A stretch of 43,416 nt of DNA from a virus (IMGVR_UViG_3300014656_000009:1-43416), one strand, 5' to 3'. Shown: positions 7,201-28,363, numbered from the stretch's first letter. Program-made: numbers and translations. Notes: generated by a model not told the origin, from the sequence alone.

Positions 7201-7911
7201 ATGAAGAAAAAAAATATCATTCAGGTTGGCCTAGCCTTGATTCTCTGCCTGTTGTTTGCTCAAGCCTATGCAGAAACAGGCAATCTTTTGACTTTGGTTG
7301 ACTTTCGCAGAGATTGTGAAAATCAGTCGGTCTTAATAAATCATCCTTTTTATCCCGATTCGCTCTGGAATAGGTGGATCAACGAAGGCTCTGCCGATAT
7401 AGCCAGTTATTGTATAATTGAGAAATTAGACACAATCCAATGGGTTGTCGGAACGATGAACTATGATTTGAATAATGACTTTATCGCATTGATAGCTCTG
7501 TTCCCATTGAAACCATTTGGGAAAAAGACATTGAACTTTATTCCAGCAAAAGACATTGGAAAACTACAGGAACTAAATCCAACGGAGGAACCCAAAGATT
7601 TTTGGCAATCGGGAAAGGGCAGGAATGCAACGGTGGGCTTTTATCCGCCGCCGGTAGTCATAGATACCATGTTAATTATCTATGGAGCCGAAGCGGAATA
7701 TATGGATTCAGATGCAGACACTACGGACATTCCCTATTCCTATCGACCTTTGATTATTGATTATGTGGTTTGGCGAGCACTACTAAGGGATGGCAAAAGA
7801 AACACAGCAGTTCAGTATTGGGGAAGCTACAAGGAGAGATTAGAGGCCAATCTCAAATTTGAACAAAAGAGATTCGACGTTTTAATACTGCCGGAGGAAA
7901 TCAAAAAGTAA
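7201..7911 (+). CDS. Adaptor/ring paralogue 2 with Sec signal peptide
   Basis: MKKKNIIQVGLALILCLLFAQAYA|ETG; WNRWINEG, VVGTMNYDLNNDF, FYPPP and IPYSYRPLIIDYVVWRA adaptor motifs. Confidence 0.75.
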   Translation: MKKKNIIQVGLALILCLLFAQAYAETGNLLTLVDFRRDCENQSVLINHPFYPDSLWNRWINEGSADIASYCIIEKLDTIQWVVGTMNYDLNNDFIALIALFPLKPFGKKTLNFIPAKDIGKLQELNPTEEPKDFWQSGKGRNATVGFYPPPVVIDTMLIIYGAEAEYMDSDADTTDIPYSYRPLIIDYVVWRALLRDGKRNTAVQYWGSYKERLEANLKFEQKRFDVLILPEEIKK

Positions 7912-7922
7912 CGGAGGTAAGT

Positions 7923-8624
7923 ATGAAAAAGATTTTAGGACTGGCTTTGCTCTTGACGCTCTTGTTGTCCACCGGAGCCAAAGCTCAGGTGACGATGAAC
8001 GGAATGTTGGCGGATGTCAAGGCGATATTGGCGGAAGGAGAACCGAGGTTTTCGGATCAGGAGATCGTAGATTACATGATTCTGTCGATTCAGTCCGTGG
8101 CAACACACGGGTTTGCATGTCATTTAGTTGAACAAGACATTGCTACTCCCTCCAGCCACTCTCTCTCTGGGGATAGTTACGATGCACTATTTGTCCGTTA
8201 TATGAATAATGACAGAAATACCGCCAATCATCATGCCATCTGGGAAATTACACCAAGCGATCTTGGACGAAAAGAATTTTCGGCCATTGCACCAGTCCAG
8301 TATTTCTATCAATATCTCAATAAAGATCAGATCACATACGAAATTTATGGACGCAAAGCATCTATAGATACACTTGAGTATCTTTATTATTTTGTGCCAT
8401 TCGCTTTTGAGGTTAGCGGAAGTGACACAATAGTTCCCGTGAGTGAGAAATTCAGGGATATAATAATCGACCACACTCTTTTCCTTTGCTATGTAAGCAT
8501 AGAGGATTGGCCTTCGGCTTGGGATTCGCTCAACAAATATTTGGCGGAAATCGGTGTGGCAAGAGAGGTCGAGTACAACGAATTACCAGATTGGAGTTTT
8601 GGAACAAAATCAATTCAGGAGTGA
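7923..8624 (+). CDS. Adaptor/ring paralogue 3 with Sec signal peptide
   Basis: MKKILGLALLLTLLLSTGAKA|QVT; RFSDQEIVDYM and FRDIIIDH motifs; GGAGG RBS. Confidence 0.72.
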   Translation: MKKILGLALLLTLLLSTGAKAQVTMNGMLADVKAILAEGEPRFSDQEIVDYMILSIQSVATHGFACHLVEQDIATPSSHSLSGDSYDALFVRYMNNDRNTANHHAIWEITPSDLGRKEFSAIAPVQYFYQYLNKDQITYEIYGRKASIDTLEYLYYFVPFAFEVSGSDTIVPVSEKFRDIIIDHTLFLCYVSIEDWPSAWDSLNKYLAEIGVAREVEYNELPDWSFGTKSIQE

Positions 8625-8628
8625 TATT

Positions 8629-9330
8629 ATGAAAAAAATCATTATTTTCGCTATTCTCGTTCTTTTTCTTAGCCCGTTGGCGTACTCAGTGACGATTGGC
8701 TATGAATGGGAGATGAGTAAAGTAGATAGTGTTTTGGTAAACTTGCTCAATGTATCACACAACGACCCTTTCTTTGGTTCAACGAAAAGACAGAACGCTA
8801 TTCAAGATGGGTTGGCTCTGACTTCTGCGACATTACCTTTATCTGGGTTCAGGCAGTCTGTTACTTTTGCCGCCGATTCTTCTGCTGCCACTATTCCCTA
8901 TGACGCTGTAACCGATATTGTTGGCGCAATAAGATTCAGTGCTACGGATTCTGCCTATAGCTTAATTGAGATAAGCGGTGCATCTGTAGGACAGAAGGAG
9001 ATTGCAACTGACGCGCCGGGAAGATACTACTGGCAGACGAGACTCGCAGATGGGACAGAAAGACTTTATATCTATCCTCCCTTACAGGCACAGGGTACTA
9101 TTCTGGTATGTGGCCTTCGGATGTACAACGCCTTTGATGATTCTGTAAGAAGTATGGCTAATCCTGAAATCCTCTATTATTCCCTGTACCGTCTTTATCA
9201 ACAAAAGGGCGAAACCAGCATCGCTTCTGCCTTCAAGCAACTTTACGACATGATGGTCGCTGATTTGCAGAACAACCTTTTGAACCGCCCCATTGACATC
9301 ACCCATCCCAAGAGGATTCTGGCAAAGTGA
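8629..9330 (+). CDS. Adaptor/ring paralogue 4 with Sec signal peptide (start corrected from 8554)
   Basis: AGGAG RBS before ATG 8629; MKKIIIFAILVLFLSPLAYS|VTI; LYIYPP and ILYYSLYRLYQQKGE motifs. Confidence 0.7.
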   Translation: MKKIIIFAILVLFLSPLAYSVTIGYEWEMSKVDSVLVNLLNVSHNDPFFGSTKRQNAIQDGLALTSATLPLSGFRQSVTFAADSSAATIPYDAVTDIVGAIRFSATDSAYSLIEISGASVGQKEIATDAPGRYYWQTRLADGTERLYIYPPLQAQGTILVCGLRMYNAFDDSVRSMANPEILYYSLYRLYQQKGETSIASAFKQLYDMMVADLQNNLLNRPIDITHPKRILAK

Positions 9331-11804
9331 AACAGAAGATCAGGGACGTTATCATAGGGCTAGCGATACTCGGCTGTGTGGCATGGTTGGTCTTGAGCGC
9401 ACAGAGCCAGCCGCCATTTAGTCCCACTCCGATAGTTGACACTGAAGCCGAAGAAGAGACATATAGCCCCCTTCAACCCTTCGGGAATATAGGGCAGATT
9501 CCTTCACCGGTTCCCAAGGCACAGCCTGGCTCTCCATTGGAGCCGTTCGGCACGTTGCAGGGTTTAAATCCTCCGGCGACATCACAGACCGTCCCTCAAA
9601 ACCCTCTTCAGCAGTTTGGCAAGTTGAACGGGCTGAATCCACCCACACAGATCAATCAGCCAGGCAATCCTTTGCAGATGTTCGAGAAGATGCAGAATTT
9701 GAATGCACCCAACCGAATATCTACGCCTGGAAATCCGACTGTGCCTTTTGGTCAATTCAATTCTATTCCGACACCGAACCCATACGCAAAGCCGGGTGAT
9801 CCAACACAACCATTCAGCCAGCTATCGGGAATGAATCCGCCAAATTCGATGTATCAGAGCTTTATGCTTTCGGATTTCTCCGGTGGTCTGAATAGAATGG
9901 ATTTACCAGCGCAAATAGCGGACAATGAGGCGACGGAATTGGTCAACTTTATCTGGGATGGAAAGAAGCTGGGGCCGAGGCCAGGGTTTACTTGGTACAA
10001 TACTGGCGAATTTGATGCTGGTGAGAGAATTTACGGGCTTTATCGGTACTATAAGCAGAATGGAGGGAGTGCACTCTTAGTTGGAATAGACGGAACCTTG
10101 TATGCAGATACAAATACACTAATAGAGGGGCGAGGTAAGGATTTTTGGACAATCAAAACAGGTCTTCAATCCAACGGGGCGTACTACTACTTCGAGACGT
10201 TAAAAGACAAGGTTATTGTGGCACATAAGGCGGACAGTCCCTTTATTCTCGATAGCGGCCTTAGTGAAGTAATTGAATTTGGTGTATTGGATTCATTTAC
10301 CACAGACTTCCACTATGCCGATGCGTGTACAATATTTTATACGGCTGAGGGTGAGGACTGGTCTGAGGATGAATGGGCTGGTCATTTTTTATCTGCTCAA
10401 AGGACTCCGCATCAGGGCACTTCGACTGACAGGGTTCCGCTTTTGATTTCTTCCAATACCGCAAATGTGCTAACGGTGCACTCTTACAGCGGTGTTTATT
10501 ATACTCTCGGCAAACAGTATTATATTTGGGGATTCTTCGGTTACGACACGGTTGCGACAGGGTTGCGATCAGAGGGTCTTGTGGTATTAGATACCTGTGC
10601 TGTGAGTATTTACAATAGCGGGGATGTTTTTGACACGTCAATGGAAGGAAAATGTATAGTAGCAAAATATTATACTGGTGCAGCCACAAATTCTGAATTT
10701 CCTGTTTATGATGTACCTGATGCACACCATCTGGTCCTACAGTACCCGCCTGATCCAGAGCCGGCATTTGGGGACTCTTTTAATCTTTTGCAGAAGGTGA
10801 TCTCAAAAGTCGATATTTGCCAAAGATATAAGAACTATCTCTTTTGTGTAGATACAGACAATGACATTATTTATTTTTCTCCCTACGATAAATGTGGTGG
10901 ATTTGGTCTTGATAATTATTTCTTCGTGAGAAGTATTCGTGGCGATCATGTCACCGCCTTATCCACCTTCTACGACGATCAGCTTGGGTACAAGGACGAT
11001 TCTAAGGACTGCCTCGTCATCTTCAAAAACAACTCCATCTATAAGCTGATCTTCAATTCAGACACAGACTATTATTTGGTTCAGGTTGTGGACGGCGTGG
11101 GCTGTGTAGCTCCGCAGACTGTTGTGAATGTGGAGGGCAAGTATCTTCTCTTCTTGCATACTTCGGGCGTTTACGCCTTCGATGGCCGGACAGTGACACG
11201 GGTATCGGACAAGATGTGGCCTCTTTTTGAGACCAATGTCAGGAAGACCAGTATCGGAGTGGCTGCTGCCGGCTACAATGATCGACACTACTATCTATCC
11301 TATCCGGCAGGAGCAAGTTACAACACCGAGGGCTTTGTATTCAACACAGACTTGGGAAGCTGGGCAGAGACAGGCAACCTTACGGGGAATCTCTTTTGCC
11401 AGCAGAATGCCGTCTCAGATACGGTCAAATTGCTGTTTGCGGACAGCAGGGCAAAGAGTTTTATCTATCGGTTCGGCAAGGTGGTGACAGATACGGGCGA
11501 AGCCATCCTGGTATCTTTGAAGTCTAAGGCTTTCAATCTTGGTGATCTGCACACAAGGAAGAGGTTCACTTATTTCGACATGGACTATTATCTTGATTCG
11601 GACTCGATCTGGACGTGGTTCTATACTGATTTCGGGGACAGTTTGAAATATGACAAGAAAGTTGGCGGAGCGGGAGGGAATAGGCACATCCGAATTCCTT
11701 TGGATGCCGACTGTATTGGCCGGAATTTCAGCTTTAAGTTGGCCTGTGAAAACAAATTTGAAATAGGAAATATAGCCTTGAAATTCAGACAGATAGGAGA
11801 GTGA
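9327..11804 (+). CDS. Tail nozzle/stabilisation protein (P22 gp10/T7 gp12-like beta-propeller) with signal peptide and Pro/Gln-rich repeats
   Basis: DFSGGLN...ELVNF...GPRPG, LVIFKNNSIY, GVGCVAPQTVV, GVYAFDG and SKAFNLG motifs; N-terminus MKQKIRDVIIGLAILGCVAWLVLSAQS|Q. Confidence 0.82.
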   Translation: MKQKIRDVIIGLAILGCVAWLVLSAQSQPPFSPTPIVDTEAEEETYSPLQPFGNIGQIPSPVPKAQPGSPLEPFGTLQGLNPPATSQTVPQNPLQQFGKLNGLNPPTQINQPGNPLQMFEKMQNLNAPNRISTPGNPTVPFGQFNSIPTPNPYAKPGDPTQPFSQLSGMNPPNSMYQSFMLSDFSGGLNRMDLPAQIADNEATELVNFIWDGKKLGPRPGFTWYNTGEFDAGERIYGLYRYYKQNGGSALLVGIDGTLYADTNTLIEGRGKDFWTIKTGLQSNGAYYYFETLKDKVIVAHKADSPFILDSGLSEVIEFGVLDSFTTDFHYADACTIFYTAEGEDWSEDEWAGHFLSAQRTPHQGTSTDRVPLLISSNTANVLTVHSYSGVYYTLGKQYYIWGFFGYDTVATGLRSEGLVVLDTCAVSIYNSGDVFDTSMEGKCIVAKYYTGAATNSEFPVYDVPDAHHLVLQYPPDPEPAFGDSFNLLQKVISKVDICQRYKNYLFCVDTDNDIIYFSPYDKCGGFGLDNYFFVRSIRGDHVTALSTFYDDQLGYKDDSKDCLVIFKNNSIYKLIFNSDTDYYLVQVVDGVGCVAPQTVVNVEGKYLLFLHTSGVYAFDGRTVTRVSDKMWPLFETNVRKTSIGVAAAGYNDRHYYLSYPAGASYNTEGFVFNTDLGSWAETGNLTGNLFCQQNAVSDTVKLLFADSRAKSFIYRFGKVVTDTGEAILVSLKSKAFNLGDLHTRKRFTYFDMDYYLDSDSIWTWFYTDFGDSLKYDKKVGGAGGNRHIRIPLDADCIGRNFSFKLACENKFEIGNIALKFRQIGE
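9465..9851 (+). repeat. Six degenerate ~22-aa repeats (PLQPFGxLxGLNPP...PG) in the nozzle N-terminus
   Basis: Units begin SPLQPFG, SPLEPFG, NPLQQFG, NPLQMFE, NPTVPFG and DPTQPFS. Confidence 0.9.
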
Positions 11805-11807: not shown

Positions 11808-12350
11808 ATGCCTTTGGGAACTTTAGCTACGCTTGGTCTGAGTTTTGGACCACAACTTCTTCAGGCTTTGTTGGGAGGGGGAAAACAAAAAACAGGGTAT
11901 AAAATGTCCCCCGAAGAATTGGAGATTTACAAAAGTCTCATGGGACAATATAAGGGAGATGTTCCTTCTTATGTTACCCAACCCATTAAATCAGAATTCG
12001 GTGCTTTGAAGAAGGGAATATCGGAGAGAACGGGACAGTCTTTGGGTGCTGGTTCAGGTTTGGAGACGGCTCAACTGATGAAAGCAACCGCCTCTGAAGG
12101 TCGGACTTTAGGCGATGCCGTCGCAAAATACAAACAGATGATTCTGGGGCAGATGGGCGGATTGGTAGGCGGGAAGGGAACAACGACAACGGGAATGACG
12201 TCCGATTGGGGCGGAGCCGTTGGTGGTGGCATGCAAGATATGGGCCTACTCATGCTTTTACAACAGATACTTGGTGGTCAGAAGACTGGCACGGGTGGTG
12301 GCTACACAATGCCTGCAAGTTTTGCCAAAGCTTTCAGCTTTAGTCGTTGA
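11808..12350 (+). CDS. Putative ejection/pilot protein (small, Gly-rich)
   Basis: Gly/Gln/Met-rich with hydrophobic ends; first gene after the nozzle, as for P22 gp7 or T7 gp14. Confidence 0.6.
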   Translation: MPLGTLATLGLSFGPQLLQALLGGGKQKTGYKMSPEELEIYKSLMGQYKGDVPSYVTQPIKSEFGALKKGISERTGQSLGAGSGLETAQLMKATASEGRTLGDAVAKYKQMILGQMGGLVGGKGTTTTGMTSDWGGAVGGGMQDMGLLMLLQQILGGQKTGTGGGYTMPASFAKAFSFSR

Positions 12351-12367
12351 TTCAGGGAGATAGTTAA

Positions 12368-13351
12368 ATGGCAGAATCAATCGTTCCGAGAGTAATCGAG
12401 ATTTTGCTTCTCGGTCAGAAGATGAAGGATGTTGAGCACCAACGCAAAAGGGACGAGCTTAGCGATGAGCTTTTGCGGGAGCGGATATCCGATCTTCGCT
12501 GGAAACGGAAGCAGAAAGACCCGTTAATGGAATTGGGGCTTCAGATACTTCAAGGACAAGGCGGTACTGGCGCTGGTTTGGGTGGAATCGATTTCTCGCA
12601 AATTAAAGATCCGATAGCTCAGGCTGGCCTTGAAAAGGCCATTGGTGGAAACATAAACTGGTCTGGATATGAGCCAAAAACCCTAACTGAATCACAGAGA
12701 TATTACAAGGAACATCCAGAAGCATCGGCGGGAAGCTGGCTACGGGAGCAAAAGAAAATTGGGAAAGAATTTGAGAAGCCGAGAGAGTATGATTTTGAAA
12801 GGGATATTCAGCGCGTCTTGAGTGAATTGAGTGCTGGAGAGACGGGGATGGTCGGCCCAAAGACACCTCCCGATATTTTGAAGCGACAGGCCACAAAAGT
12901 AGTGACCGAGAAGGAATTCCCTGCCTTAAGAGGAAAAGAAGTCGGAGATCAGAAGAAAGAGATTACTGCACTGAAAAACGAGTGGCGAAAATATAGGCTT
13001 GGAGATGAAGAAATCAAACTGCTCATGCGGTTCCCCACGCTTGATCCAAAAGGTCAAGAAATGAAAGAAGTTTTTGAGTATTGGGCCGCCGATCTCGATT
13101 CCGGTGTTCGGATTCAACTTGGCAAAGACTTGGGTTTTTACAAGATAGGTGAAACCTTCGGACAGCCACGCCAAACCAAAAAGCAGAAAAGTCAAAGGCC
13201 AGAGAAACCAATAAACTATTCCAGTATGGCTGAGGGATTGAAAAAGCTGTACGGCGTACAAACAAAAAAGACCCTTCAGGCTCATCGCTCTGAACTTGAA
13301 TCGTCTTATCCTGGTTTGAATTGGGAAGAGCTGAAAAAGCATTTTAAATAA
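12368..13351 (+). CDS. Putative ejection protein, 327 aa
   Basis: Charged helical protein between the small and large ejection genes. Confidence 0.55.
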   Translation: MAESIVPRVIEILLLGQKMKDVEHQRKRDELSDELLRERISDLRWKRKQKDPLMELGLQILQGQGGTGAGLGGIDFSQIKDPIAQAGLEKAIGGNINWSGYEPKTLTESQRYYKEHPEASAGSWLREQKKIGKEFEKPREYDFERDIQRVLSELSAGETGMVGPKTPPDILKRQATKVVTEKEFPALRGKEVGDQKKEITALKNEWRKYRLGDEEIKLLMRFPTLDPKGQEMKEVFEYWAADLDSGVRIQLGKDLGFYKIGETFGQPRQTKKQKSQRPEKPINYSSMAEGLKKLYGVQTKKTLQAHRSELESSYPGLNWEELKKHFK

Positions 13352-13352
13352 T

Positions 13353-16300
13353 ATGCCATTAGCAAAACTCAAAGAGTTAGACAAATACACTTACGGTGAT
13401 AGTGCTGAGATTAGTCCAGAAAAGCTCGATTTGACAGCTTTGGACGAATACGTCTACGGTAAGCCAACCAAGACAATGGTTGGTCCTGGCATCATGGAGC
13501 GGATACATAGCGGCCTGAGAAAAAAGATCGGTCTTGAAGGTTTTGATCTTGGGCGTGCCTTAACTGGCGTAGGCAAGATGGGCGAAAAACCATCTTCAGA
13601 TCTTCGGGGGCAGATAGGAGATTTAGCCCTTCAGTTCTTAGAAGAATCCAGGGAAAGGACGATTCCGACTCCCCTGACCGAAGGACAGACCAGCAAAGAA
13701 CAGATGGAAATTGTCGTCGGCAATGTACGCAAACAGATGGAGGCCGCCGTGCGGTTCCCGATTGACATGGCTCAGAATATCATGTTTGATGAGAAGCTGC
13801 AGCCAAGAACACCTGTGGACGTGATAAAACAGGGTGCGAAAGTTGGCCTTGACTTCGCGCAGTTTTTCAGACAGACCTTTGAAGATTATTCTACCTATAT
13901 CAGTCCATTGGCATCAGCGGAGGCCAAAGAAGAGGCTATGCAACGGATCGCACAGGAACCCTTAAACCTCTTCTTTGCGACAGGGATAGCTAAGGGGGGA
14001 ATGAAGCAATTCAGGCAGCTCCGGCAGATGTTCAGGCCGAAAGTAGGAACGATTCCGATTGCAGAACGTGTAGGTGAAGTCTTTGCGAAAAAGGAGGCAC
14101 TGACGACTGAAACGGAATTTGCCAAAGAACAGGGCAAGCCGTCAATCTTTGAGGAACCTAAAAAGAAGGTTGTGTATGGTAAAGAGGAAATGGCTCTTGC
14201 CAAGAAGATCAAGGAGGAGATGAAGGGGGAGAAAGTCGGATTGACACCAGGTCAATTGAGACTGCCTTACCTCCAAGCAAGGAAAATACAGTCTGGTAAA
14301 TACCAAGCCTTTTATAAGGGTACGAATAACAATTTTGAGATTGCCGGTAAGCCAATAACAAAAGTATTTGATACTGCCGACGAAGCAAGGGCTTACATCA
14401 AAGCAGAATGGGCAAAAGATCAAATAAAAAGGATGGGGATTACCGCCAAGCCTGCACCGGCAGGGAAAGCCCCTGCGGTCAAAGAGCCGTGGGATATGAC
14501 AATAGATGAACTTCTGCGTACGGGAAGAACCCTGGAAGAACCTGAGGTATATGCTTCAATACTGAAAAACGAAGGGCCAGAAGCCTTAAAAATGGTTAAG
14601 AGGCTTCACGAGGAAGGTCTTGGTACACTCGAAACACATAATTTAGGGACGGCTATTGATGTTAGAATCCAAGCCCCAGAGAGTTATATATCCAAGTTAA
14701 GAAAAGAAGGTTTTAAGGTTAGCTATCCGTGGAAAGATAAAACATATAACCTTGAGATACCATTAGATAAAGTGGATTCAGAGCTAATTCGTCTGCCTAA
14801 GAATCTTGAGAAGGGACGTGCCGCCGTTTTTGATATTGTGGAAGGAGAGGTTGTGGGTGATTATGCCGCTGATATTGGATTGGTACATGAAAAAACTGTC
14901 CGCCAAGCCCTCTCCGAAGGCAAGCTCTCTATTGGAGAATATAATCGGCTTCACGCCAAAGATTCTGGGCCAATAGAAGAATTTGCCCCTGAGCTTGCGA
15001 AGGGCGTTGAGAAGCCTTCCCCTATCCCCAAAGAGCTTGAGGGGAAGGCACCCAAGTTAAACTTGACAGATAAATATCTGAATGAGGAAATCAACTATGG
15101 TGGAGAGATAAGGACACGAGGTTCTATTATCGCTGAAATGCAGAAAGAGGGTATACCAGAAAGACAAATTGGTCTCTATATGATGGGTGCCAAGACTCTT
15201 AAAGGGAAGCCTTCGCCTGTCCCACCAGAGCTTGGGGGGTTGGAGTCAATAGGTAAAGCTGAAATGAAGTTATCGGCGGAATTGGAGGCAAAAGGTATAC
15301 CCAAAACAGAAATTACGAAAGCACCGGAATTGCCAGTTCAAGAACCTCCGCCCAAGAATGTTTATGGGGAGGAAATAGCAAGATCAGAGATAGATAATCT
15401 TTTGCTCAAACTACAACGAAAAAACTTAAGCACCGGAGAGCGACAAAAGTTTGCTCGTTGGGTTTTGCAGAAACAGTATGAAGCCAACCAAATACCAGAA
15501 GGGCATCCATTGGCTTTGAATTTTGCACAAAACGTAGTCAAGGCGATTGAAACATTTAGAGCAAAAGAGTCTTTTCCTTCTTGGAAAAACGAGGGCGTGA
15601 AGAATGCAGAACATTACCTGAAAGATTATCTAAGAGATGTTCAAGCCGCCCAGCGAGGAAAGGGGGAAGAGGGAATTGTTTCGTCTCTAACCAAAGCCGA
15701 AGAGGGGGCAAGACGACGCATCAAAAAACGTGGGGTGCGGTTGACCACTGGCATTGATCCTGCGGAGATAGCCGACTACGCCATAATTGGAAGTGCCAAG
15801 ATTGCGAAGGGGGCCATCAAGTTTGCCGACTGGTCTGTGGAGATGGTTAAAGAATTTGGAGATGGAATTAAACCATACTTGAGAACGATTTATGTCCGGT
15901 CACAGAAAGAGATACCCAGGGTTAGGGTTAATGCAGAGATTGATTCATTTATCGACTATTTTGAGGATATCCAGGCACCAAAAGGATTTCGCCCACCACG
16001 CAAACCCGCCCGGGCTGCCATTAGAGAACGCCTACGAGAAGAAGGGTTAACGGGTAGCGAATTAACCTCTGAGACGAATGCTGAATTTATCAAAGAAGTC
16101 CAGGATTACGGCATCGCGCTTCGTCAAACTAAGGGAGGTAAAGTTCAACCGTCTATCCGGGTGGCGGGAACTTATGTCCCTAAAGATTTTGCTGCCTATA
16201 CAGAGTTCAAGGATGCCAAGGCTGGCGTTTTTGGTGGTACAAAGGACGCAACCCGATTCATTCAGGAAATTGACGGAGCCTTGTCTGTTGAAGCGAAGGC

Positions 16301-19214: not shown

Positions 19215-19234
19215 CCTTTTAATCGGGAGGAGCT

Positions 19235-20055: not shown

Positions 20056-20360
20056 TGGAATTTGGAACCTTCTTTGAATTGTTGGGAGTCGATCTCAAAG
20101 TTATCGCTGGATGTGTTCCGGCCATAATAGTCGCAACGAATTTCTTCAAACGGGTAATGAACCTGAAGAACAGCCAACACTATTTTGTGATCGGCGGAAT
20201 GAGTCTGCTCTTGGCCTTACGCTTTGGCCTTCCCGATCCGATAGCTGTGTTCTCTTATCTGGTAGCATTGCCATTGGCTTCTATCGGAGCATGGGAAAGT
20301 GCAAAGACATTGGTGCACAAGATGGGTAAACCGTCAACAAAAGAATTGGAGCTTAAGTAA
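20052..20360 (+). CDS. Holin-like membrane protein
   Basis: About 100 aa with 3 hydrophobic segments, ASIGAWE motif and a basic C-terminus. Confidence 0.6.
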   Translation: MMEFGTFFELLGVDLKVIAGCVPAIIVATNFFKRVMNLKNSQHYFVIGGMSLLLALRFGLPDPIAVFSYLVALPLASIGAWESAKTLVHKMGKPSTKELELK

Positions 20361-21479: not shown

Positions 21480-22065
21480 AAAATTCTGCCTTATCATAAT
21501 CGGTCTGCTGATCTCGTGGGGACAATACTGCTATGCCGACAGCGAAATTCTGTACCCTGAAGATGATTACGATACTTTTTGGTTTCCGTCTACTGGATCG
21601 GATCGTTGGGCAATGGTGGACGATCCAGCGGGAAGCCCCGACGACTGGACTACTTATGTGTATACCGTTACTTTGAACGCCCGGAATGCAATGGTGTTTC
21701 AAAATACGTCCTTTACCACCATCGACAGCCTCTATCTCTTTGTAAGAGCGGCCTGCTTTGGAGGAAACGGAATTGATACCCTTGAACTCGGCTATATATT
21801 GGAAGGCGAAACTCCCTCTTGGCAGGAGATTTGTGATGTTGTAATCACGACCACGATTACTAATTTTACTTGTAAATTGACTGGTGAATGGTCTCAATCA
21901 ACGGTAAATAGTCGAGTTTACGGCTTTGCTGCCCAGACCCCTGAAGAGCAACAGTGGGTGACGCAGTGCTATTTGACGGTGTATGGAGAAGCGGCACCAC
22001 CAAGTGGAAAGCCACGTCAGCCTATTGTCAGAGACATAGAAGATGGAGGAGGAATAGTTCGATGA
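21472..22065 (+). CDS. Exported beta-sandwich protein, probable tail appendage, with signal peptide
   Basis: MIKKFCLIIIGLLISWGQYCYA|DSE; C-terminal DIEDGGGIVR. Confidence 0.6.
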   Translation: MIKKFCLIIIGLLISWGQYCYADSEILYPEDDYDTFWFPSTGSDRWAMVDDPAGSPDDWTTYVYTVTLNARNAMVFQNTSFTTIDSLYLFVRAACFGGNGIDTLELGYILEGETPSWQEICDVVITTTITNFTCKLTGEWSQSTVNSRVYGFAAQTPEEQQWVTQCYLTVYGEAAPPSGKPRQPIVRDIEDGGGIVR

Positions 22066-23549
22066 AGAAATTAGCTTTGTTAGCAATGATGTTCTGTCTT
22101 TTAACCGGCTATTCCTTTGCGGAAAGTCCCTATGACCTCAAGCAGTTTATCACCGTCACTTACGATACTGCTTACTATCCTACGCTTGCCGATGTGGATT
22201 CCGTCCAGGGTTTCTTTGTCTTCAACGGTAATGAAATTTACGACACGACTCTTACGACTTCACTTATGACAGGCTACTATCTCCGAGAGACCAACGTCTG
22301 CAACTGGTACGATACGGATTCACTAGGGGCATGGGGATATGTCACAAGGGCTTGGTGCTGTGGAGCGACAATAACCGGGGGCAAGTCGTGGAGTTATACG
22401 GTTAAGATCGATCCGCTTGAACGAGATAGAAATGCAAAGATTCTTTTTGTCAAGCCAGACGCAGACGCTGTTATTGGTGGGACGGGATGTACTTGGATTG
22501 ATGCCTGTTCACTCAGTACGGTTCAGGCGAGGGCGACCGGAGCAAGTGAATATACTATCTATGTAGCACCAGGGATATATTCAGACGTAGAGATTGATTG
22601 GACAGTTTCGGCACCAACGAAAATCTTTGGAGCGGGAATAAATTCAAGCATACTGATTGGCAAAAAAGACGTGTCCAGTGGATTAGGGTCTCATTACGTT
22701 TTTAGAATGAACTCGGCAGATACATCTGCGGTAGAGTTTGCCGGATTCACTGTCCAATCTTTCCGGGCATCGACCGGTGATTATGATTCGGTTACCCATT
22801 GGGGCGTTTATCCTTTGATAAGTAGGGGCTGGTACATGCATGATTGTCTGATTCGTGGCTTTTATTATGGCATACAAACCTGCGGGGCTTCTATTTATGG
22901 TCGGTTTGAAGATAACAGGATATTGCATTCCGTTAGTATGCCTATGAAAATAGAGGGTGGATCGGGGAATTTGTTTAGAGATAACGCAATAGATTCAGTT
23001 ACGGGATCTGCGGCGGTCGGCATCAATGTTAGTAGCACCAGTTACGATAACATTTTCACGAGCAATATTGTCGCCATGAACAAGGGAAGAGCTATTTATT
23101 GTGCTTCCGGAACCAAGAGGAATATTTTTGCGAATAACTCCCTTTCTGCTACAGGGGATTCGGTTATAGTTGATGCCGGTGATAATGTTTTTATCGGAAA
23201 CCACAGGCGAAGCCAGTCAGCCGATCCGCAAACGCTTGAAGATGACCTAGCTGTTCTTGAAGGATATGTAGATGGCATAGAGACCAAGACCAATAACCTT
23301 CCTGCTGATCCTGCCTCAGAGACAAATGTGAATGCCAACGAAACCAAGATTGATGTGATTGATGGCATTGTTGATGGGATCGCAGCCTTCCTCGGAGCAA
23401 CCGACGGTGATTATTTTATATTCTATCCGCTAGGTTCAGCCAACAAGGATAGCCTAAGAGCATTTAATTCAGCAGATGCTTGTGTAGGAACAATGTATTT
23501 CCTTCATACCGGCTCTGTCATAGATAGCACAAGGTGGGAGAAATGGTAA
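22062..23549 (+). CDS. Tailspike-like right-handed beta-helix protein with signal peptide (start corrected from 21954)
   Basis: GGAGGAGG RBS; MKKLALLAMMFCLLTGYSFA|E; IYVAPGIY, IFGAG and Asn-ladder repeats; C-terminal coiled coil. Confidence 0.75.
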   Translation: MKKLALLAMMFCLLTGYSFAESPYDLKQFITVTYDTAYYPTLADVDSVQGFFVFNGNEIYDTTLTTSLMTGYYLRETNVCNWYDTDSLGAWGYVTRAWCCGATITGGKSWSYTVKIDPLERDRNAKILFVKPDADAVIGGTGCTWIDACSLSTVQARATGASEYTIYVAPGIYSDVEIDWTVSAPTKIFGAGINSSILIGKKDVSSGLGSHYVFRMNSADTSAVEFAGFTVQSFRASTGDYDSVTHWGVYPLISRGWYMHDCLIRGFYYGIQTCGASIYGRFEDNRILHSVSMPMKIEGGSGNLFRDNAIDSVTGSAAVGINVSSTSYDNIFTSNIVAMNKGRAIYCASGTKRNIFANNSLSATGDSVIVDAGDNVFIGNHRRSQSADPQTLEDDLAVLEGYVDGIETKTNNLPADPASETNVNANETKIDVIDGIVDGIAAFLGATDGDYFIFYPLGSANKDSLRAFNSADACVGTMYFLHTGSVIDSTRWEKW

Positions 23550-25900
23550 TGAAAAAGATCGTCCTTCTGATTCTGTTCTTAGTCTTATCCCCATTGGCAC
23601 GGGCTACGACGTTTTATCTCGATTATGAGAATGGCAATGATACTAACAACGGAACAACCTGGGCTTTGGCTTGGAAGACCTTAACCACGGGAGCTACGGA
23701 AGCAAGGATAACCGCAGGTGATGTTATCCGCATTGCTAAATCGCCAGAGCCGGTTAGTTTGGGCAGTGTTACATGGACGGACAATTCGGCGACGGTTACT
23801 TTAGCTTCTGCGGCCACTGCAAACATAGATGACGGTGAAGTGGCCTGGACTGCATCTGCCGACGTGACTGCCACGGCCAGCAGCACGTATGAGAAAGAGG
23901 GAACTAACTCTGCAAAACTGGTAATAGCTGGTGAATTCACTACTGGCATAATTGCTTACAAACAGATCAGCGATACGGATTTTTCTGATTATGATGAAAC
24001 GACATTTTGGCTAAGGACAACGGCGGCTATTGCGGCTAACTGTCTTAGGCTTGACCTGTGTTCCGATATTGCTGGGGTGACGGTTGTAGACAGCATGATA
24101 ATCGACCATGCTCTTGTCTCTGGATATTTTTATCCGATTCACATAGACAATGGCGGAGCTTTGGGCAGTAGTATTCAATCGGTAGCTCTTTATGCTCGGA
24201 CTGATCCTGGGAGCGTGACAATCTACATTGATAATATCTTGGCCTGTAATGGTTTTAACCTGACCAGTTTGATTGGCAAAAACACGGATGCCGAAAGCTG
24301 GTGGACGATCAAATCCATAAATGGCACAACCGTAATCTTGGGCAATGTTGCCGATTATGGATCGACGGTTAGAAAATATCAGGGGGCCTCGGAGGGAGTG
24401 ACCAGCTATTACAGAGAGACCATAAAAACTACGTTGGCGACTTCAACCACAATCAATGTACAGCAGATAATGGATGCAGGCACTTATGGTGGTAACAGCA
24501 TAACTTTTTCCGGCGGTTGGAATACGTCAACTACAGAACAGGATGGTGAAACTTGGTTCGATGGGATTAATGGGCTGGGAAATGGAATATATATGAGTGC
24601 CAAGGATTACATTACGTTCGACAACATTAGTCTGACACGTTACTATATTGGGATTTATGCCACTAACACAGAGTACACTTACGGAGTGAACATAACATCC
24701 AACGGAAATCAGCTATATGGAATCCATTTGAATATCTCGACTATGCACAGCGAATGGGATACTTTGACTGCAAATCAAAATGTCCAAGCAGGATTGGTCT
24801 TTGAACAAGAGTGCAACAGCCATACTGTGACTGTTGGGCGTTTTTATTCCAATACCAGCGGCGTTACCTGGGGATCCAATGCAAGCTCTAATGGTTGCCA
24901 TTTAGATTCCTGCTATGCTTACGGAAATCAGGCCAGGGGATTCCATTGCAGTAACACCAATGATGCGGTCATAAAGAATAGTCATACCAAAAACAATATC
25001 ACTTGTGGAATTATTTGCGACAACTCCCAAGTCTATTTTTACAACTGTCTGCTTGAAGAGGCATCGGAAATGAACTGGGGTGCCAGTGGAGAATCTAAAA
25101 CATCCTTTATCCGCAGTCATAGACACGATCAGGTGGAGGATAGGTTTAAGGACTGGTATCCGTTGGGCATGATTACGGATCAGATTACTGCTGGACAGGA
25201 GGCTAGCTGGGCTAGGGGTGGATCAGGGTTGTGCGTTTATTTGGCTCCGCTTAGTACCATATATCCCCTAGAGTTTGTCTTCAAAGTGCCTGTAAGCGAT
25301 GGCGTAGCTTTTACGGTTAGCTTTTATGTGAAAAAGACAGGTGAAGACCCAACTCTTACATTTTCCTCTTATGGTGCTGGAATCACACCGATTAACGATG
25401 CCTCTGTCACCGTAACCACAAGCTGGGCTCAATACACTTCTAGCAGCATGACACCAACAGAAAATGGGTTTGTCGAAATAACTTTAAAAGCACTGGATTC
25501 ATGGCCAGAGGGTGACATTGGGATCGACGATATTTCTATCTCTGCTGGAGGGTACAGTGATTTTGGTGAATGTGATTATTGGTACTACGGAGCAATAGAT
25601 GGAGGAATCGTAGGATCATATTTTGGTTCAATGGACAGATGGTATTACGGCTCGCCTGATGGAGGGATTACTGATGCCTCAGCCGTTGAGGGCGACACCA
25701 TAACCTATATGCGAATCAAAGGCGACTGGAGATTCAGGTCGTCTTATACGAGCGGTGCAGATTATATGAGGGCGATGGATTGGAGGTTTCAGGATACGAC
25801 TTATGTATCCGGTTTGCCGGGTGGAATTGTAAGGATTCACGGCGACGAGGGGATTTTGAAGATACACGATGAGGATGGAATAGTTAGAATTCACAGATAA
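23549..25900 (+). CDS. Tailspike-like beta-helix plus carbohydrate-binding-like domains, with signal peptide (start corrected from 23534)
   Basis: MKKIVLLILFLVLSPLARA|TTFYLDYENGNDTNNGTTWALAWKT...AGDVIRI is a typical beta-helix cap; parallel beta-helix repeats follow. Confidence 0.75.
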   Translation: MKKIVLLILFLVLSPLARATTFYLDYENGNDTNNGTTWALAWKTLTTGATEARITAGDVIRIAKSPEPVSLGSVTWTDNSATVTLASAATANIDDGEVAWTASADVTATASSTYEKEGTNSAKLVIAGEFTTGIIAYKQISDTDFSDYDETTFWLRTTAAIAANCLRLDLCSDIAGVTVVDSMIIDHALVSGYFYPIHIDNGGALGSSIQSVALYARTDPGSVTIYIDNILACNGFNLTSLIGKNTDAESWWTIKSINGTTVILGNVADYGSTVRKYQGASEGVTSYYRETIKTTLATSTTINVQQIMDAGTYGGNSITFSGGWNTSTTEQDGETWFDGINGLGNGIYMSAKDYITFDNISLTRYYIGIYATNTEYTYGVNITSNGNQLYGIHLNISTMHSEWDTLTANQNVQAGLVFEQECNSHTVTVGRFYSNTSGVTWGSNASSNGCHLDSCYAYGNQARGFHCSNTNDAVIKNSHTKNNITCGIICDNSQVYFYNCLLEEASEMNWGASGESKTSFIRSHRHDQVEDRFKDWYPLGMITDQITAGQEASWARGGSGLCVYLAPLSTIYPLEFVFKVPVSDGVAFTVSFYVKKTGEDPTLTFSSYGAGITPINDASVTVTTSWAQYTSSSMTPTENGFVEITLKALDSWPEGDIGIDDISISAGGYSDFGECDYWYYGAIDGGIVGSYFGSMDRWYYGSPDGGITDASAVEGDTITYMRIKGDWRFRSSYTSGADYMRAMDWRFQDTTYVSGLPGGIVRIHGDEGILKIHDEDGIVRIHR

Positions 25901-25924
25901 GAATTAAGCTACAGGAGGTGCAGT

Positions 25925-27337
25925 ATGTACGGTAAGAGTAAATTGGGGAAGGCGATAACAGTCTTTCTCATGGTTTGCGTGGGCGGAAGTTTGCTTTATG
26001 GGCTGGCCTATGCAATCAATCGGACGACGGGCAGCAATACCTTTGCTGGTGAAGGCATTCGTATTGGAACGGGGCCTAATGACGATACGATTCACGTCTT
26101 TCAGGGCAGGGGATTATGGATTGACAATGATAGTCTCGTCGTTCTCTTAGGCCGTGGTCTGGCTTTCGATGGCGACAGTGCTATCGTCAACGCCGGAGAT
26201 GGATTGGATTTTAACGCTAATGCCTTGAAAGTTTTGACTGGATGGGGAACGAAGATCGACAATGATTCGGTCGTCTCTGATGTAGCAGAGCTTGACGATT
26301 ATTTCGTGACGATCTCTACTGTCCAGCAGATTACAGCGGTTAAAGGATTCAGCGATACGCTTCGCTTGGGGACAAATGACGCTGATGGAATTCTGTCAAT
26401 CTTCTCGGAGCAAGGCGGAATAGACTACAAGGTTGTAGTCAAGCCCCATGCGACAATGACTCAAGATGTAGTTCTAGTTCTGCCTCCCGACGATGGCGGA
26501 GCTTCAACATTTCTTAAGTCTGATGGATCAGGCAATCTTACTTGGGATACTCCACCTGGTGGTGATCCTGGATCGGCGATTCATGATTCCTTGAATACTC
26601 ATTGGACTATTTTCACTACTTCGGGCGCGGAAATCCACGACAGTTTAAACGCCAACTGGTCTACGTGGCTGGATGGAGATGCCAGCGAAGCGGACATACA
26701 CGATTCTTTAAATGCCCACTGGACAGCTTTCACAGCCGGAGAAGATGGATCGGAGGCCGATATTCACGACTCAATATACGCTAACACCGCAGGGTACGCC
26801 ACCAATAGCGAAATTCACGATTCTCTCTGGATTCAGGACTTTTGGAGTCCCACTAATTATGATGTAGATACTGTGACTGAGACGGGCTTTGAAATCTTTT
26901 ATCCGATTGAGATACGTGGTACACCCAGCCATTCAAACGTTGCTAGATTTTGCAACAACACTGGCTCTGACGATAAAATGGGGAGTGTGAATTGGAATGG
27001 CAGATTGCCTGGTGGTTTTCTGGCAGACGTAGACAGTTTTAACATTGGCTTTGTGACAACAGATACTGATACCCTCATCAGCAAGGTAAACATCGCTATC
27101 TATGCAATGAATGATAGAGAGGGGTGGCCGCCGGAGGATACGGTGAAGTTCTCTGGCAACAGCTATGCAAGTACTGTTGCAGATACCTGGAGATGGATAA
27201 GCATCGCAGCGGGTGATATTAGCCCGATTGCTGCTTTAAGCAAAGTGATCATTAGAGTTGAAGCCACCGCCGACGATGGTGAAATGGTACAAGTGGAAGG
27301 TCCGGACCAAATGGGTTTTTGGGCATTCAGAAAATAG
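25925..27337 (+). CDS. Tail-fibre-like protein with signal peptide, beta-spiral-like shaft repeats and IHDSL repeats
   Basis: AGGAGGTG RBS; ...VGGSLLYGLAYA|I; GxGL repeats; LPPDDG..FLKSDGSGNLTW fibre motif. Confidence 0.72.
   Translation: MYGKSKLGKAITVFLMVCVGGSLLYGLAYAINRTTGSNTFAGEGIRIGTGPNDDTIHVFQGRGLWIDNDSLVVLLGRGLAFDGDSAIVNAGDGLDFNANALKVLTGWGTKIDNDSVVSDVAELDDYFVTISTVQQITAVKGFSDTLRLGTNDADGILSIFSEQGGIDYKVVVKPHATMTQDVVLVLPPDDGGASTFLKSDGSGNLTWDTPPGGDPGSAIHDSLNTHWTIFTTSGAEIHDSLNANWSTWLDGDASEADIHDSLNAHWTAFTAGEDGSEADIHDSIYANTAGYATNSEIHDSLWIQDFWSPTNYDVDTVTETGFEIFYPIEIRGTPSHSNVARFCNNTGSDDKMGSVNWNGRLPGGFLADVDSFNIGFVTTDTDTLISKVNIAIYAMNDREGWPPEDTVKFSGNSYASTVADTWRWISIAAGDISPIAALSKVIIRVEATADDGEMVQVEGPDQMGFWAFRK
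26579..26830 (+). repeat. Five IHDS(L/I) repeats of about 18-23 aa
   Basis: AIHDSLNTHW, EIHDSLNANW, DIHDSLNAHW, DIHDSIYAN, EIHDSLW. Confidence 0.9.
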
Positions 27338-27352
27338 TATGAGAGATTGTCC

Positions 27353-28363
27353 ATGCTGAAAAGATGCTGGCTTATAGTTCTCTGTCTTGCCTTCGCTTCG
27401 CAGGTGGCAGGGGAGGATATATCGCCGAAGGATACGGTGTTCCTTGAGTATTCCACGCTGATTAACTATAACGGAAGTAGTGTAGGCACTGTGTTTGTAG
27501 AAGTCAAGCATGGTGCTTTGAAATACAGCGTTCCGCTACAAGATGATGGGGAGGGAGAATGGAGTGGAGCAATATATTTGCCTGATTCTCTCCCTGGCGG
27601 CGTGCCTACTGGCAGTTGGAACCGGAAGTATTTCTGGGCCTATGCTGGAGATACGACAAAGGAAGATGAGACATTCGGAGTCCGAGACACGAGCGAATTG
27701 CAGGGATCGGCTTCAGGGCTGACGGTCGGTGATATAATTGATTCACTTATTGCCATTGGCTATTTTGGCTCCGGTACAGGGTCCTACAAGGATACGATCA
27801 TAGTTCTGGACGAAGATACGAACACGGTCGAAGGCGTATCTATCACCGTTAGAAACGCTTCGGGAACGGTTGTAGCGGCACAAGAAAGCGACGTAAACGG
27901 CGTAAGAATTTTCAATCTTGATCCTACGGTTTATACTTTTAGTCTTCAGCGAATAGGCGTGATTGTTAGCGACGATACGACAATTACGGTTTCAGGGAAT
28001 CAGACCGATACGATTTGGGTGATGAGTTTCAGTCCTTCTGCACCACCAACAGACAGTGTTTGCATTGTCTATGGCTGGGTTAAACGATCTGGTGTCGGAG
28101 TTGGGGGTGCGAGGGTCAAAATGTGGCTTCCACAATTTCCGGTGACGTATCATGGCGTAATAGTAGATGCCATCAATCCAATGACCGTCACAACCGATAA
28201 TACCGGTTATTTTGAATTTGACGAAGGGTGGTATCCAAATAGCCTTTTGTTGCCCGCAAATACAAGATATATCTTTAGGGTAGAATGGCAGGGTCTAAAA
28301 TTTGAAAAGAAAATAGAAGTTCCGTTACAAGATAGTTGGCAGATAGAATTGGATTTACCGTAA
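27353..28363 (+). CDS. Exported protein with carboxypeptidase-regulatory-like/Ig-like domains, probable tail appendage
   Basis: MLKRCWLIVLCLAFASQVAG|E; VEGVSITV...SDVNG and VGGARV...TTDNTGYFEF motifs. Confidence 0.68.
   Translation: MLKRCWLIVLCLAFASQVAGEDISPKDTVFLEYSTLINYNGSSVGTVFVEVKHGALKYSVPLQDDGEGEWSGAIYLPDSLPGGVPTGSWNRKYFWAYAGDTTKEDETFGVRDTSELQGSASGLTVGDIIDSLIAIGYFGSGTGSYKDTIIVLDEDTNTVEGVSITVRNASGTVVAAQESDVNGVRIFNLDPTVYTFSLQRIGVIVSDDTTITVSGNQTDTIWVMSFSPSAPPTDSVCIVYGWVKRSGVGVGGARVKMWLPQFPVTYHGVIVDAINPMTVTTDNTGYFEFDEGWYPNSLLLPANTRYIFRVEWQGLKFEKKIEVPLQDSWQIELDLP

Follow-up and report, generated by a model that had tools for sequence, protein, structure and literature searches.

Gene content of the locus and distribution of leaders

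The window analyzed here (43,416 nucleotides at full length) is a complete, circular, 43-kb genome; the phage, uncultured and short-tailed, comes from groundwater. With a capsid and large terminase of the tailed-phage type (PF17236, PF04466) and SU10-type adaptor folds (PF24175 for 7201; ESM Atlas for 8629 and 6472; hhalign for 7923), it belongs with the short-tailed Caudoviricetes that have an SU10-type tail. It departs from the single leaderless adaptor and leaderless nozzle of such tails in coding for four adaptor-fold proteins, with leaders on three of them and on the nozzle (Table 1).

Table 1. Principal features of the window, with predicted signal peptides given by residue
Coordinates	Strand	Feature	Predicted leader	Basis or remark
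96..1940	+	Portal	None	Position and size; no direct family match
3075..3968	+	Scaffold-like protein	None	Position
3973..5127	+	Major capsid protein, SU10 type	None	Pfam PF17236, E 2.5e-16
5143..5946	+	Probable capsid-associated protein	None	G003 homologue leaderless
6027..6470	+	Acidic protein directly before ring 1	None	
6472..7134	+	Ring 1, SU10-type adaptor, putative cytoplasmic side of the split	None	ESM Atlas
7201..7911	+	Ring 2, SU10 adaptor domain	Codons 1-24	PF24175, E 7e-15
7923..8624	+	Ring 3, adaptor paralogue	1-21	hhalign
8629..9330	+	Ring 4, adaptor paralogue	1-20	ESM Atlas 0.97
9327..11804	+	Nozzle: proline-rich linker, podovirus nozzle fold	1-25	AlphaFold2, Foldseek
11808..18458	+	Three ejection-type proteins (11808, 12368, 13353)	None	Role by position
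18490..20360	+	Membrane cluster:		
18490		TM and coiled coil		Weak Rz/haemolysin-like matches
19235		Outer-membrane-barrel-like protein	1-26	By eye
19774, 20055		Small membrane proteins, holin-like		Hydropathy
21472..22065	+	Small beta-rich appendage candidate	1-22	G003 counterpart
22062..23549	+	Beta-helix spike candidate	1-20	PF13229, E 1e-7
23549..25900	+	Protein elsewhere leaderless in tailed viruses	1-19	Homologues
25925..27337	+	Fibre-like protein, five IHDS repeats	1-30	G003 counterpart
27353..28363	+	Ig/prealbumin-like domains	1-20	PF13620, E 2.5e-5 (below curated cut-off)
41824..43248	+	Large terminase	None	PF04466, E 2.8e-15

Signals were called by an in-house heuristic together with homologue alignment, rather than by SignalP 6 or DeepTMHMM. 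The nine ORFs that an initial annotation had singled out for signal-like N-termini all bear them, though its count is short by one, 19235 being a tenth within the same interval. The nine leaders present the hallmarks of Sec/signal peptidase I substrates: an n-region made basic by a net charge of +2 or +3, a hydrophobic core free of charged residues (Kyte-Doolittle mean of the best 11 residues 2.6-3.7) and a site with small residues at -3/-1. In the portal, scaffold, capsid, 5143 protein, 6027 protein, ring 1 and the three ejection proteins, hydropathy is at most 2.15 and the net charge ahead of the hydropathy window at most +1, in agreement with the annotation, which had described all of these except 6027 as lacking a signal. 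Leaders are found on 9/9 distal tail ORFs as against 0/9 head, ring 1 and ejection ORFs.

Run on 49 translations (48 ORFs, with the terminase in two versions), the heuristic returned 12 positives, namely the nine tail ORFs, 19235, 39002 (which encodes a small membrane protein) and the terminase when read from a start farther upstream. The last, from an ATG at 41761, was rejected as an alternative-frame reading of the C-terminal strand of the small terminase; among the three related genomes compared throughout (G001-G003), G002 shows the same frame overlap together with a Met that aligns, and no such stretch is present in the G001 terminase. The heuristic fires on 32/6821 pseudo-starts within non-signal proteins (0.5%) and on 0/3285 within the mature parts of signal proteins. 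The leaders overlap upstream reading frames by no more than 8 nt. The contention that most starts have a ribosome-binding site or coupling holds for six of the nine, which have a clear Shine-Dalgarno (SD) sequence, and for 21472, coupled to the preceding gene by an 8-nt overlap; it does not extend to 27353, where the SD is weak, or to 7201, which lies behind a 66-nt gap and has neither, even if good SDs precede its counterparts in G001 and G003. Relatives start at the signal, and across the four genomes no internal start with an SD is conserved downstream of the leaders.

The mature parts, previously taken for ring and nozzle homologues, are indeed three SU10-type adaptor paralogues and a podovirus-type nozzle. 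Ring 1 matches the SU10_adaptor cluster of the ESM Atlas (features 0.97, TM 0.71) and ring 4 a cluster that is 95% PF24175, while hhalign connects ring 4 to ring 2 (93%) and ring 3 to both ring 4 (probability 96%) and ring 2 (74%). Among 21 ring 2 homologues, 16 have the signal and the other five begin within or after it. The leader is less conserved than the body (33% versus 66% identity in the homologue alignment), and all 16 retain the basic start and hydrophobic core; the residue just ahead of the mature domain is Ala in 15 and Gly in one, as expected from signal-peptidase cleavage.

In the nozzle, the signal is followed by a proline-rich linker of about 150 aa with five repeats of about 22 aa, an element missing from several other signal-bearing nozzles. 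Its AlphaFold2 model (pLDDT 89, pTM 0.88) has the platform and beta-propeller of the family, and every one of the best 30 rows in the Foldseek listing belongs to a phage tail complex (E 7e-20 to 2e-8); PDB sequence searches with the nozzle profile and with ring 2 gave no meaningful match. Judged from homologues, cleavage falls after residue 25 (LSA|Q) and not at the AQS|Q first proposed. A search of the whole genome in six frames turned up no second or leaderless nozzle, the next best match having E 0.29. A signal is present in 63 of 156 nozzle relatives: DFxGG lies at residues 1-37 of the leaderless ones (48 rows where found) versus 20-254 of the signal-bearing ones (39 rows), 10 of which have a Met within the 15 residues ahead of it.

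The fibre or spike character of the five distal ORFs is less firm, since it is assigned mainly from position and incomplete matches. A G003 protein that bears a signal corresponds to 21472 (E 4e-9 over 67 aa), 22062 has counterparts with signals in G001 and G003, 27353 has counterparts in the same two genomes and 25925 has one in G003 (E 1.5e-4 over 74 aa), the single-sequence fold of 25925 (pLDDT 34) being too low to use. The 23549 protein is 39% identical over 702 aa to the leaderless AZF89914.1 of Methanosarcina virus MetMV, a leaderless ORF of Variovorax phage VPv81 matches it in the N-terminal part, and its predicted mature start falls exactly where a homologue without a leader begins.

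Elsewhere, ejection-type counterparts occupy the same position in G001-G003 and are leaderless. A small leaderless ORF is also found in the 6027 position in G002 and G003; speculatively, 6027 is a candidate head-completion or plug factor, and no product that plugs the DNA ahead of nozzle arrival was identified. Barrel-like ORFs with a signal are also found in G001, where similarity to 19235 has E 0.01, and in G003, where none is detected. Pfam, PHROGs and NCBIfam searches of the submitted ORFs found no endolysin in the window (best E 0.33 with a two-sequence HMM), and no spanin lipoprotein was recognized there, which weakens, for this genome, the case for head and tail joining at lysis. By contrast, an endolysin-like protein of G001 (phrog_894, E 0.0013), itself leaderless, fits release through lysis, and G003 has an ORF resembling it by eye, with no family match.

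Relatives and known virion assembly systems

The split between leaderless and leader-bearing genes, whose conservation the initial annotation had left to be checked, recurs in 3/3 related genomes. The capsids of G001 and G002 have no BLAST match to that of the window, and yet all three genomes share the tail block that begins with ring 2; hence, the seam of exchange coincides with the onset of signals. Phages with 58-59% identity in ring 2 have ring 1 proteins without detectable similarity to one another, which makes direct binding of ring 2 to ring 1 look odd. In G003, the portal is 27% (E 1e-51), the 5143 protein 31% and the leaderless ring 1 24% identical to those of the window. Among 50,697 phage records, cultured relatives amount to three weak nozzle matches, and ring 2, 22062, 25925 and 27353 have no match. 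Scans of viral contigs gave no matches when queried with the single nozzle, with the terminase or with either of two sub-clade alignments; a third sub-clade alignment gave three distant loci, all leaderless.

Tailed-phage morphogenesis is generally regarded as entirely cytoplasmic; the tail proteins T7 gp11/gp12 and P22 gp4/gp10 are leaderless and are joined to the head in the cytoplasm. The nozzle fold of these podovirus tails is found in the window (7boy, 6r21, 8eap; Foldseek). The closest overall likeness is to Kuravirus SU10 (PMC9509320; PDB 7z47, 7z4b), which has the same capsid type, adaptor family, nozzle fold and gene order (portal, scaffold, capsid, adaptor, nozzle, ejection proteins). 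However, a single adaptor ring joins its portal and nozzle, whereas the window has four adaptor-fold genes, three with signals, and no tail-protein signal peptide appears among the 12 of 35 text matches listed for that paper. The barrel of phiCrAss001, like that predicted here, interposes paralogous rings of low identity between the portal and a nozzle-related muzzle (PMC10172136), to which the window nozzle has a Foldseek match (E 7e-10). Nonetheless, the Crassvirales features (a genome of about 100 kb, a virion RNA polymerase and a crass-fold muzzle) do not apply: the window has 43 kb against 103 kb in phiCrAss001, family searches found no RNA polymerase match in it, and its nozzle core has 651 aa against about 1360 aa in the crass muzzle (TM to target 0.19). 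In the main text of PMC10172136, 'signal' and 'glycosyl' occur 0 times, and the tail has disulphides without reported export; therefore, cysteines are not diagnostic, and cysteine content (1.36 versus 0.84 per 100 aa) was set aside.

Inoviridae virion proteins have Sec signals and are joined with the DNA-bearing parts across the inner membrane. These viruses are ssDNA filaments with a membrane-inserted coat, in contrast to the dsDNA icosahedral head, terminase and soluble tail proteins of the window. Our literature searches turned up no description of a tailed phage with an exported, periplasmically built tail, in keeping with the claim that no such system had been described.

O-glycosylation motifs and the host

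According to PMC12871550, D-(S/T)-(A/I/L/V/M/T) is glycosylated in Bacteroidota only in non-cytoplasmic proteins, and Glu is not tolerated for Asp in B. fragilis. We counted this Bacteroidota consensus, D-(S/T)-[AILVMT], in the proteins of the phage, with expectations from shuffles. The ten signal proteins hold 50 motifs versus 17.9 +/- 4.0 in shuffles (z 8.1; 0/1000 reach 50), the nine leaderless structural proteins 13 versus 8.4 expected and the 29 other proteins 6 versus 8.0. Among window proteins, controls with E for D or the motif reversed show no enrichment, and neither does the N-glycosylation sequon (32 versus 31). The signal-bearing sets of the relatives repeat the excess (49 versus 14.8 expected in G001, 21 versus 6.1 in G002, 55 versus 14.1 in G003; z 6.1-11.7), whereas their leaderless sets do not (6 versus 6.6, 7 versus 5.1 and 6 versus 8.8, respectively). 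The enrichment tracks the split in 4/4 genomes, lending weight to the earlier proposal that proteins distal to the first ring are exported.

It is a property of the pooled signal-bearing set rather than of every protein. While 25925 (13 versus 3.2 expected) and 27353 (8 versus 1.6) are rich in motifs, 23549 (4 versus 4.4) and 19235 (0 versus 0.4) are not, and the window nozzle has 4 strict motifs versus 2.7 expected and 18 of D-(S/T) versus 8.3. In ring 2, D53-T54 and D131-T132 are invariant across 19 rows. The portal has one motif versus 0.9 expected; the sole exception among the leaderless structural proteins is 5143 (5 D-(S/T) motifs versus 1.5), the leaderless G003 homologue of which has 0.81 motifs per 100 aa. 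Over the shared nozzle core, the observed/expected ratio is 2.10 in 63 signal rows versus 0.79 in 80 leaderless rows; the excess is thus not accounted for by the fold. Eight signal-bearing nozzles outside the main clade have none (31 versus 27.9); thus, the 55-row signal counts as one inherited event, not 55.

The tail proteins resemble the Bacteroidota O-glycosylation substrates in coupling a signal peptide to a D-(S/T) motif excess, and in both L, V and I are the commonest third residues (PMC12871550). Substrates known so far belong to the host envelope, and the main text of that paper has 0 occurrences of 'phage'; the tail proteins of the window are putative substrates.

A genome-collection scan for the host gave one distant locus and nothing closer; no host or prophage was found, ten cluster look-ups led to no organism, and tRNA genes are absent from the window and seven loci scanned. 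The phage has strong SD sites at 24 of 36 scored starts, and Bacteroidia do not typically use such sites. Hence, the host is probably of another lineage outside the Bacteroidia, where D-(S/T) glycosylation is not known to occur. In an RNA run (X5), contigs lie over patches of the late region; they say nothing on expression.

A proposed assembly route and its alternatives

We advance the following route. The head, portal, ring 1 and ejection proteins, having no export signal, would stay in the cytoplasm. Rings 2-4, the nozzle and the five distal appendage proteins would be exported by Sec, cleaved of their leaders and O-glycosylated by the host on D-(S/T) motifs. Tail pre-assembly would take place in the periplasm; late in infection, when the inner membrane gives way, the finished tail would attach to ring 1 of a filled head. 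Judged from the leaders and their conservation, export and cleavage of these proteins is highly probable; that the host glycosylates them with a Bacteroidota-type system is quite probable from the motif excess; periplasmic pre-assembly and joining at inner-membrane rupture, the most tentative steps, we favor by a modest degree. For the reading as a whole, from export, cleavage and glycosylation to late docking of a pre-assembled tail on ring 1, we would give a probability of roughly 0.55. The parts that meet the next host would likely benefit from a glycan coat resembling the host's own, and possibly from folding or disulphide formation in the periplasm.

The evidence for export and the motif excess would fit equally well if free periplasmic subunits were added singly to ring 1 at or after lysis, and sequential addition of adaptor, nozzle and fibre to a filled head is the order of podoviruses such as P22 and T7. 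We consider this unlikely, as mixing of the compartments at lysis would presumably be brief and followed by dilution, and as the block from ring 2 to the nozzle is exchanged between heads as a single unit. Less likely still is a non-lytic egress in which filled heads would dock at the inner membrane, join the periplasmic tail via a phage pore and exit by a dedicated path, in the manner of filamentous phages, the barrel-like outer-membrane protein perhaps taking part. It could draw on the lack of a recognized endolysin or spanin lipoprotein in the window, on the signal-bearing barrel-like and small membrane ORFs of 3/3 complete genomes and on the nozzle linker, which might tether to the membrane before cleavage. 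However, several signal-bearing nozzles have no such linker, a barrel of about 150 residues is much too narrow for a capsid, the apparent membrane anchor of the terminase is an artefact, and G001 has its endolysin-like gene, with the lookalike in G003.

A hydrophobic N-terminus by itself does not tell a signal from an anchor, so that the leaders might be uncleaved, in which case the inner membrane would be the site of tail building and hydrophobic segments or a lipid collar would remain on the virion. We deem this improbable given the short cores, the Ala or Gly before the mature domain in 16/16 ring 2 homologues and the agreement of the 23549 mature start with a natural start; the basic n-regions predict an outward-facing folded part either way. 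Strongly disfavored is the view that the true starts lie downstream and the proteins are cytoplasmic, the leaders being chance or frame shadows. The terminase provides one such shadow in this genome and 7201 lacks an SD, but the low false-positive rate (0.5%), the minimal overlap with other genes (<=8 nt), the want of a conserved internal SD start in four genomes and the leaders of 63 nozzle and 16 ring 2 relatives all tell against it, and it leaves the motif excess without explanation.

If the proposed two-compartment route is true, tailed phages would have a second assembly compartment, and how the DNA is held before the nozzle arrives and how the halves meet would become testable. Infectivity or camouflage could then hinge on the glycan of the previous host. 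The modular seam between rings 1 and 2 suggests that tails could be made separately from heads. We give even odds to the broader idea of a deep lineage building its virion in two compartments, with a cytoplasmic head under a single ring, a Sec-exported, host-glycosylated tail pre-assembled in the periplasm and attached across or through the inner membrane, nozzle signals that arose more than once and, in this genome with its lack of a recognized endolysin, a joining step that may be tied to a new and possibly non-lytic exit. From sequence alone, the combination of leader and motif can also hint at which hosts uncultured phages infect. As a minor observation on the motif-rich 25925, its IHDS repeats recall the HxS repeats described in PMC13128918 for the HXS defence effector; the simpler reading is that they are D-S motifs.

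Leaders and mature parts of the tail proteins

The leader pattern of this phage is genuine and conserved, and two independent signatures in the sequence point to export. All nine of the signal-peptide-like N-termini (leaders) claimed by the initial annotation, on rings 2, 3 and 4 (7201, 7923 and 8629; ORFs are named by start coordinate), the nozzle (9327) and the distal genes (21472, 22062, 23549, 25925 and 27353), are present, with a net charge of +2 or +3 followed by an uncharged hydrophobic core scoring 2.6–3.7; as was also claimed, the head proteins, ring 1 (6472) and the ejection-type proteins have none (0/9). These calls come from our own heuristic rather than SignalP. Its 12 positives among 49 translations comprise, besides the nine, ORF 19235, the membrane ORF 39002 and the terminase read from an upstream start; its false positives number 32 among 6821 pseudo-starts inside proteins without a signal and 0 among 3285 inside mature parts. 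The ten real leaders, with 19235 as the tenth, overlap any upstream gene by at most 8 nt. Good ribosome-binding sites or coupling had been claimed for most starts; a clear SD precedes six of the nine, but 7201 has neither SD nor coupling. The terminase upstream-start "signal" was rejected as a frame shadow, as it overlaps, in a different frame, the C-terminus of the small terminase; the related genome G002 has this shadow too, together with an aligned Met, and the terminase of G001 lacks it. Gene callers could easily take such a stretch for a real signal.

The claimed identity of the mature domains as rings and nozzle is borne out by matches to the SU10_adaptor and podovirus nozzle folds. The 7201 protein matches SU10_adaptor (E 7e-15), and 8629 and the leaderless 6472 group with SU10_adaptor clusters (ESM Atlas 0.97; TM 0.71 for 6472). 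In hhalign comparisons of three-sequence profiles, rings 2, 3 and 4 are related to each other (74–96%), and ring 1 is not linked to them (at most 2%). A model of the nozzle core, based on 115 sequences, has pLDDT 89, and for this model the best 30 listed Foldseek rows are phage tail complexes only, the matches including cyanophage A4, SU10, Pa223, Carin-1, T7 gp12, P22 gp10 and the crAss muzzle. No second nozzle or further copy of rings 2–4 was found in six frames, with a ring profile of limited reach, as it also misses ring 1. In signal-bearing nozzles the proline-rich linker can be absent or up to about 220 aa long. Among the distal proteins, 22062 contains a beta-helix, and 21472, 25925 and 27353 are candidate appendages by position and weak or no family matches.

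Leaders in related phages and the nozzle family

The same split is seen in three of three related genomes (G001–G003): ring 1, head and ejection proteins are leaderless, and the later rings, the nozzle and such distal genes as are present bear leaders. G001 is complete and temperate, and G002 is a fragment ending ahead of the distal genes; both share rings 2–4 and the nozzle with the window (ring 2, 58–59%; nozzle, 44–46%), and BLAST of the window capsid against theirs gave no match. In G003 the head is related to that of the window (capsid 30%, ring 1 24%), two of the rings bear signals and all five distal genes have counterparts, some by short matches only; its nozzle, with a longer n-region, was negative by the heuristic and counted as signal-bearing by eye. 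As to whether relatives start downstream of the hydrophobic segments, no conserved internal SD-preceded start exists across these genomes. Among the rings, ring 2 shows the highest conservation, and its presumed partner, ring 1, varies. The first ejection-type protein (11808), leaderless, moves with the tail block (54% identity in G001, 46% in G002) and is a candidate link or plug. We found no cultured close relative of the window phage; as G001 encodes an integrase and an S24-type repressor, searches of host genomes should turn up prophages of its group.

Leaders are found in 15 of 17 nozzle-search proteins, that of the window included; of the remaining two, one starts inside the domain and the other is a distant leaderless relative. 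Likewise, 16 of 21 ring 2 proteins have a leader and the other five begin inside or after it; identity is 33% in the leader versus 66% in the body, and the mature domain is directly preceded by Ala in 15 proteins and by Gly in one. Leaderless nozzles occur at fourteen loci near distant nozzle matches, several being near-duplicates, and at three more loci.

Pooling the best 150 of 4861 profile-search proteins (E up to 0.001) with the nozzle-search proteins gave a family set of 156, of which 63 have a hydrophobic N-terminus. In a FastTree phylogeny of 146 cores, after removal of 10 fragments or outliers, one clade (support 97) unites the window with 55 signal rows in all and three rows with unclear starts. 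The other eight signal rows (P0068, P0096, P0111, P0148, P0107, P0126, P0091 and P0128) are placed as four pairs elsewhere in the tree, and three of these pairs are surrounded by leaderless rows. IQ-TREE on 40 of the 146 rows requires five changes, at least four forced by well-supported branches, on an unrooted tree in which gain and loss are not separable. The outlying pairs, which also lack the motif excess described below, suggest separate origins of the signal in other hosts.

An O-glycosylation motif as a marker of export

The Bacteroidota-type O-glycosylation motif D-(S/T)-(A/I/L/V/M/T) is described in PMC12871550 as glycosylated solely in non-cytoplasmic proteins and enriched mainly in Bacteroidota. 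The ten signal proteins of the window contain 50 instances versus 17.9 in shuffles (z 8.1), the nine leaderless structural proteins 13 versus 8.4 and 29 other proteins 6 versus 8.0; control motifs (E-for-D, reversed and N-glycosylation) show no enrichment. For structural gene sets of our choosing in G001, G002 and G003, respectively, the observed/expected counts are 49/14.8, 21/6.1 and 55/14.1 for signal-bearing proteins and 6/6.6, 7/5.1 and 6/8.8 for leaderless ones. The ratio for whole nozzles is 2.93 when signal-bearing versus 1.14 when leaderless, and 2.10 versus 0.79 in the shared core only; in ring 2, two D-T sites are invariant across 19 rows. The signal-bearing ORFs between portal and scaffold in G002 and G003, absent from the window, are very motif-rich (3.3 and 5.0 per 100 aa) and are candidates for an exported head decoration.

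The excess is weak in the nozzle of the window (strict motif), present in the leaderless 5143, and missing in 19235 and 23549. The latter shares 39% identity over 702 aa with a leaderless protein from the archaeal Methanosarcina virus MetMV, and a leaderless ORF in Variovorax phage VPv81 starts at the position where the mature part of 23549 begins. The protein may be a module that was acquired recently and then gained its signal. Across the family, the 55 signal nozzles of the main clade have 616 motifs versus 196 expected, and the eight outlying ones, 31 versus 27.9, have no excess; thus, the motif is the mark of a single clade and, probably, of the group of hosts that this clade infects. SD sites are used at 24 of 36 starts, which is at odds with the SD usage of Bacteroidia. 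Hence, the host is unlikely to belong to Bacteroidia, and another FCB-group lineage would be our guess.

A putative assembly route and its genomic setting

We propose that the leader-bearing tail proteins would be exported through Sec and their leaders cleaved (probability about 0.9), and that the host probably O-glycosylates the exported proteins. The tail might then, on a slightly favoured reading, pre-assemble in the periplasm and dock on ring 1 upon inner-membrane failure. Exit from the cell may, less probably, be non-lytic, given that the window has no recognizable endolysin or lipoprotein spanin, its membrane ORFs being holin-like and weakly Rz-like. The leaderless endolysin-like gene carried by G001 favours lysis.

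The component parts belong to known families. SU10 has a single adaptor ring (PMC9509320), as against four adaptor-like genes in the window, and phiCrAss001 has stacked paralogous rings (PMC10172136), like the ring paralogues here. The words "signal" and "glycosyl" are absent from the main text of the latter, and an excerpted account of Bacteroides phages gives one or two signal peptides each, tail proteins not being named among them (PMC5723332). Subscription journals and supplements aside, we found no description of exported or glycosylated tail proteins, and the implied route, with its putative joining step, is unlike any tailed-phage system found in print.

The window spans one complete circular phage genome with a 123-nt terminal repeat (its own record class is direct terminal repeats), and may derive from four groundwater metagenome runs, each containing all sampled sequence words. 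The gene order is terminase, portal, scaffold, capsid (SU10 type, PF17236), 5143, 6027, four adaptor-like genes, nozzle, three ejection-type genes, membrane cluster, methyltransferase and five distal genes. The ORFs scanned include no recognizable endolysin, lipoprotein spanin, integrase or tRNA gene. Methyltransferase genes are often found alongside glycan modification. All three complete genomes encode an outer-membrane-barrel-like, signal-bearing, motif-free ORF adjoining small membrane ORFs, with weak or undetectable mutual similarity.

Coordinates of features in the window and in loci of the related genomes
Feature	Sequence	Coordinates	Remark
Nozzle linker	window	9402-9850	21% Pro; five ~22-aa repeats centred on P/Q/M-F-G/E
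First ejection-type protein	window	11808-12350	
Direct repeat, first copy	window	18882-18924	43 nt (91%); within ORF 18738
Direct repeat, second copy	window	31646-31688	spans RBS and start of ORF 31671
Barrel-like ORF	window	19235-19768	
Barrel-like ORF	L046 (G001)	1474-1974	
Barrel-like ORF	L054 (G003)	5531-6049	
Class I methyltransferase	window	20841-21479	PF13578; immediately precedes distal tail genes
Distal protein 23549	window	23549-25900	
Fibre-like protein	window	25925-27337	IHDS repeated five times, each copy being a D-S motif; superficial similarity to HxS repeats of HXS defence effector
Terminase frame shadow	window	41761-41894	rejected
Extra portal-scaffold ORF	L003 (G002)	2615-3247	
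Extra portal-scaffold ORF	L050 (G003)	3108-4064	
OmpA-domain lipoprotein, tyrosine integrase, S24-type repressor	L046 (G001)	8288-8851 and 9072-11034
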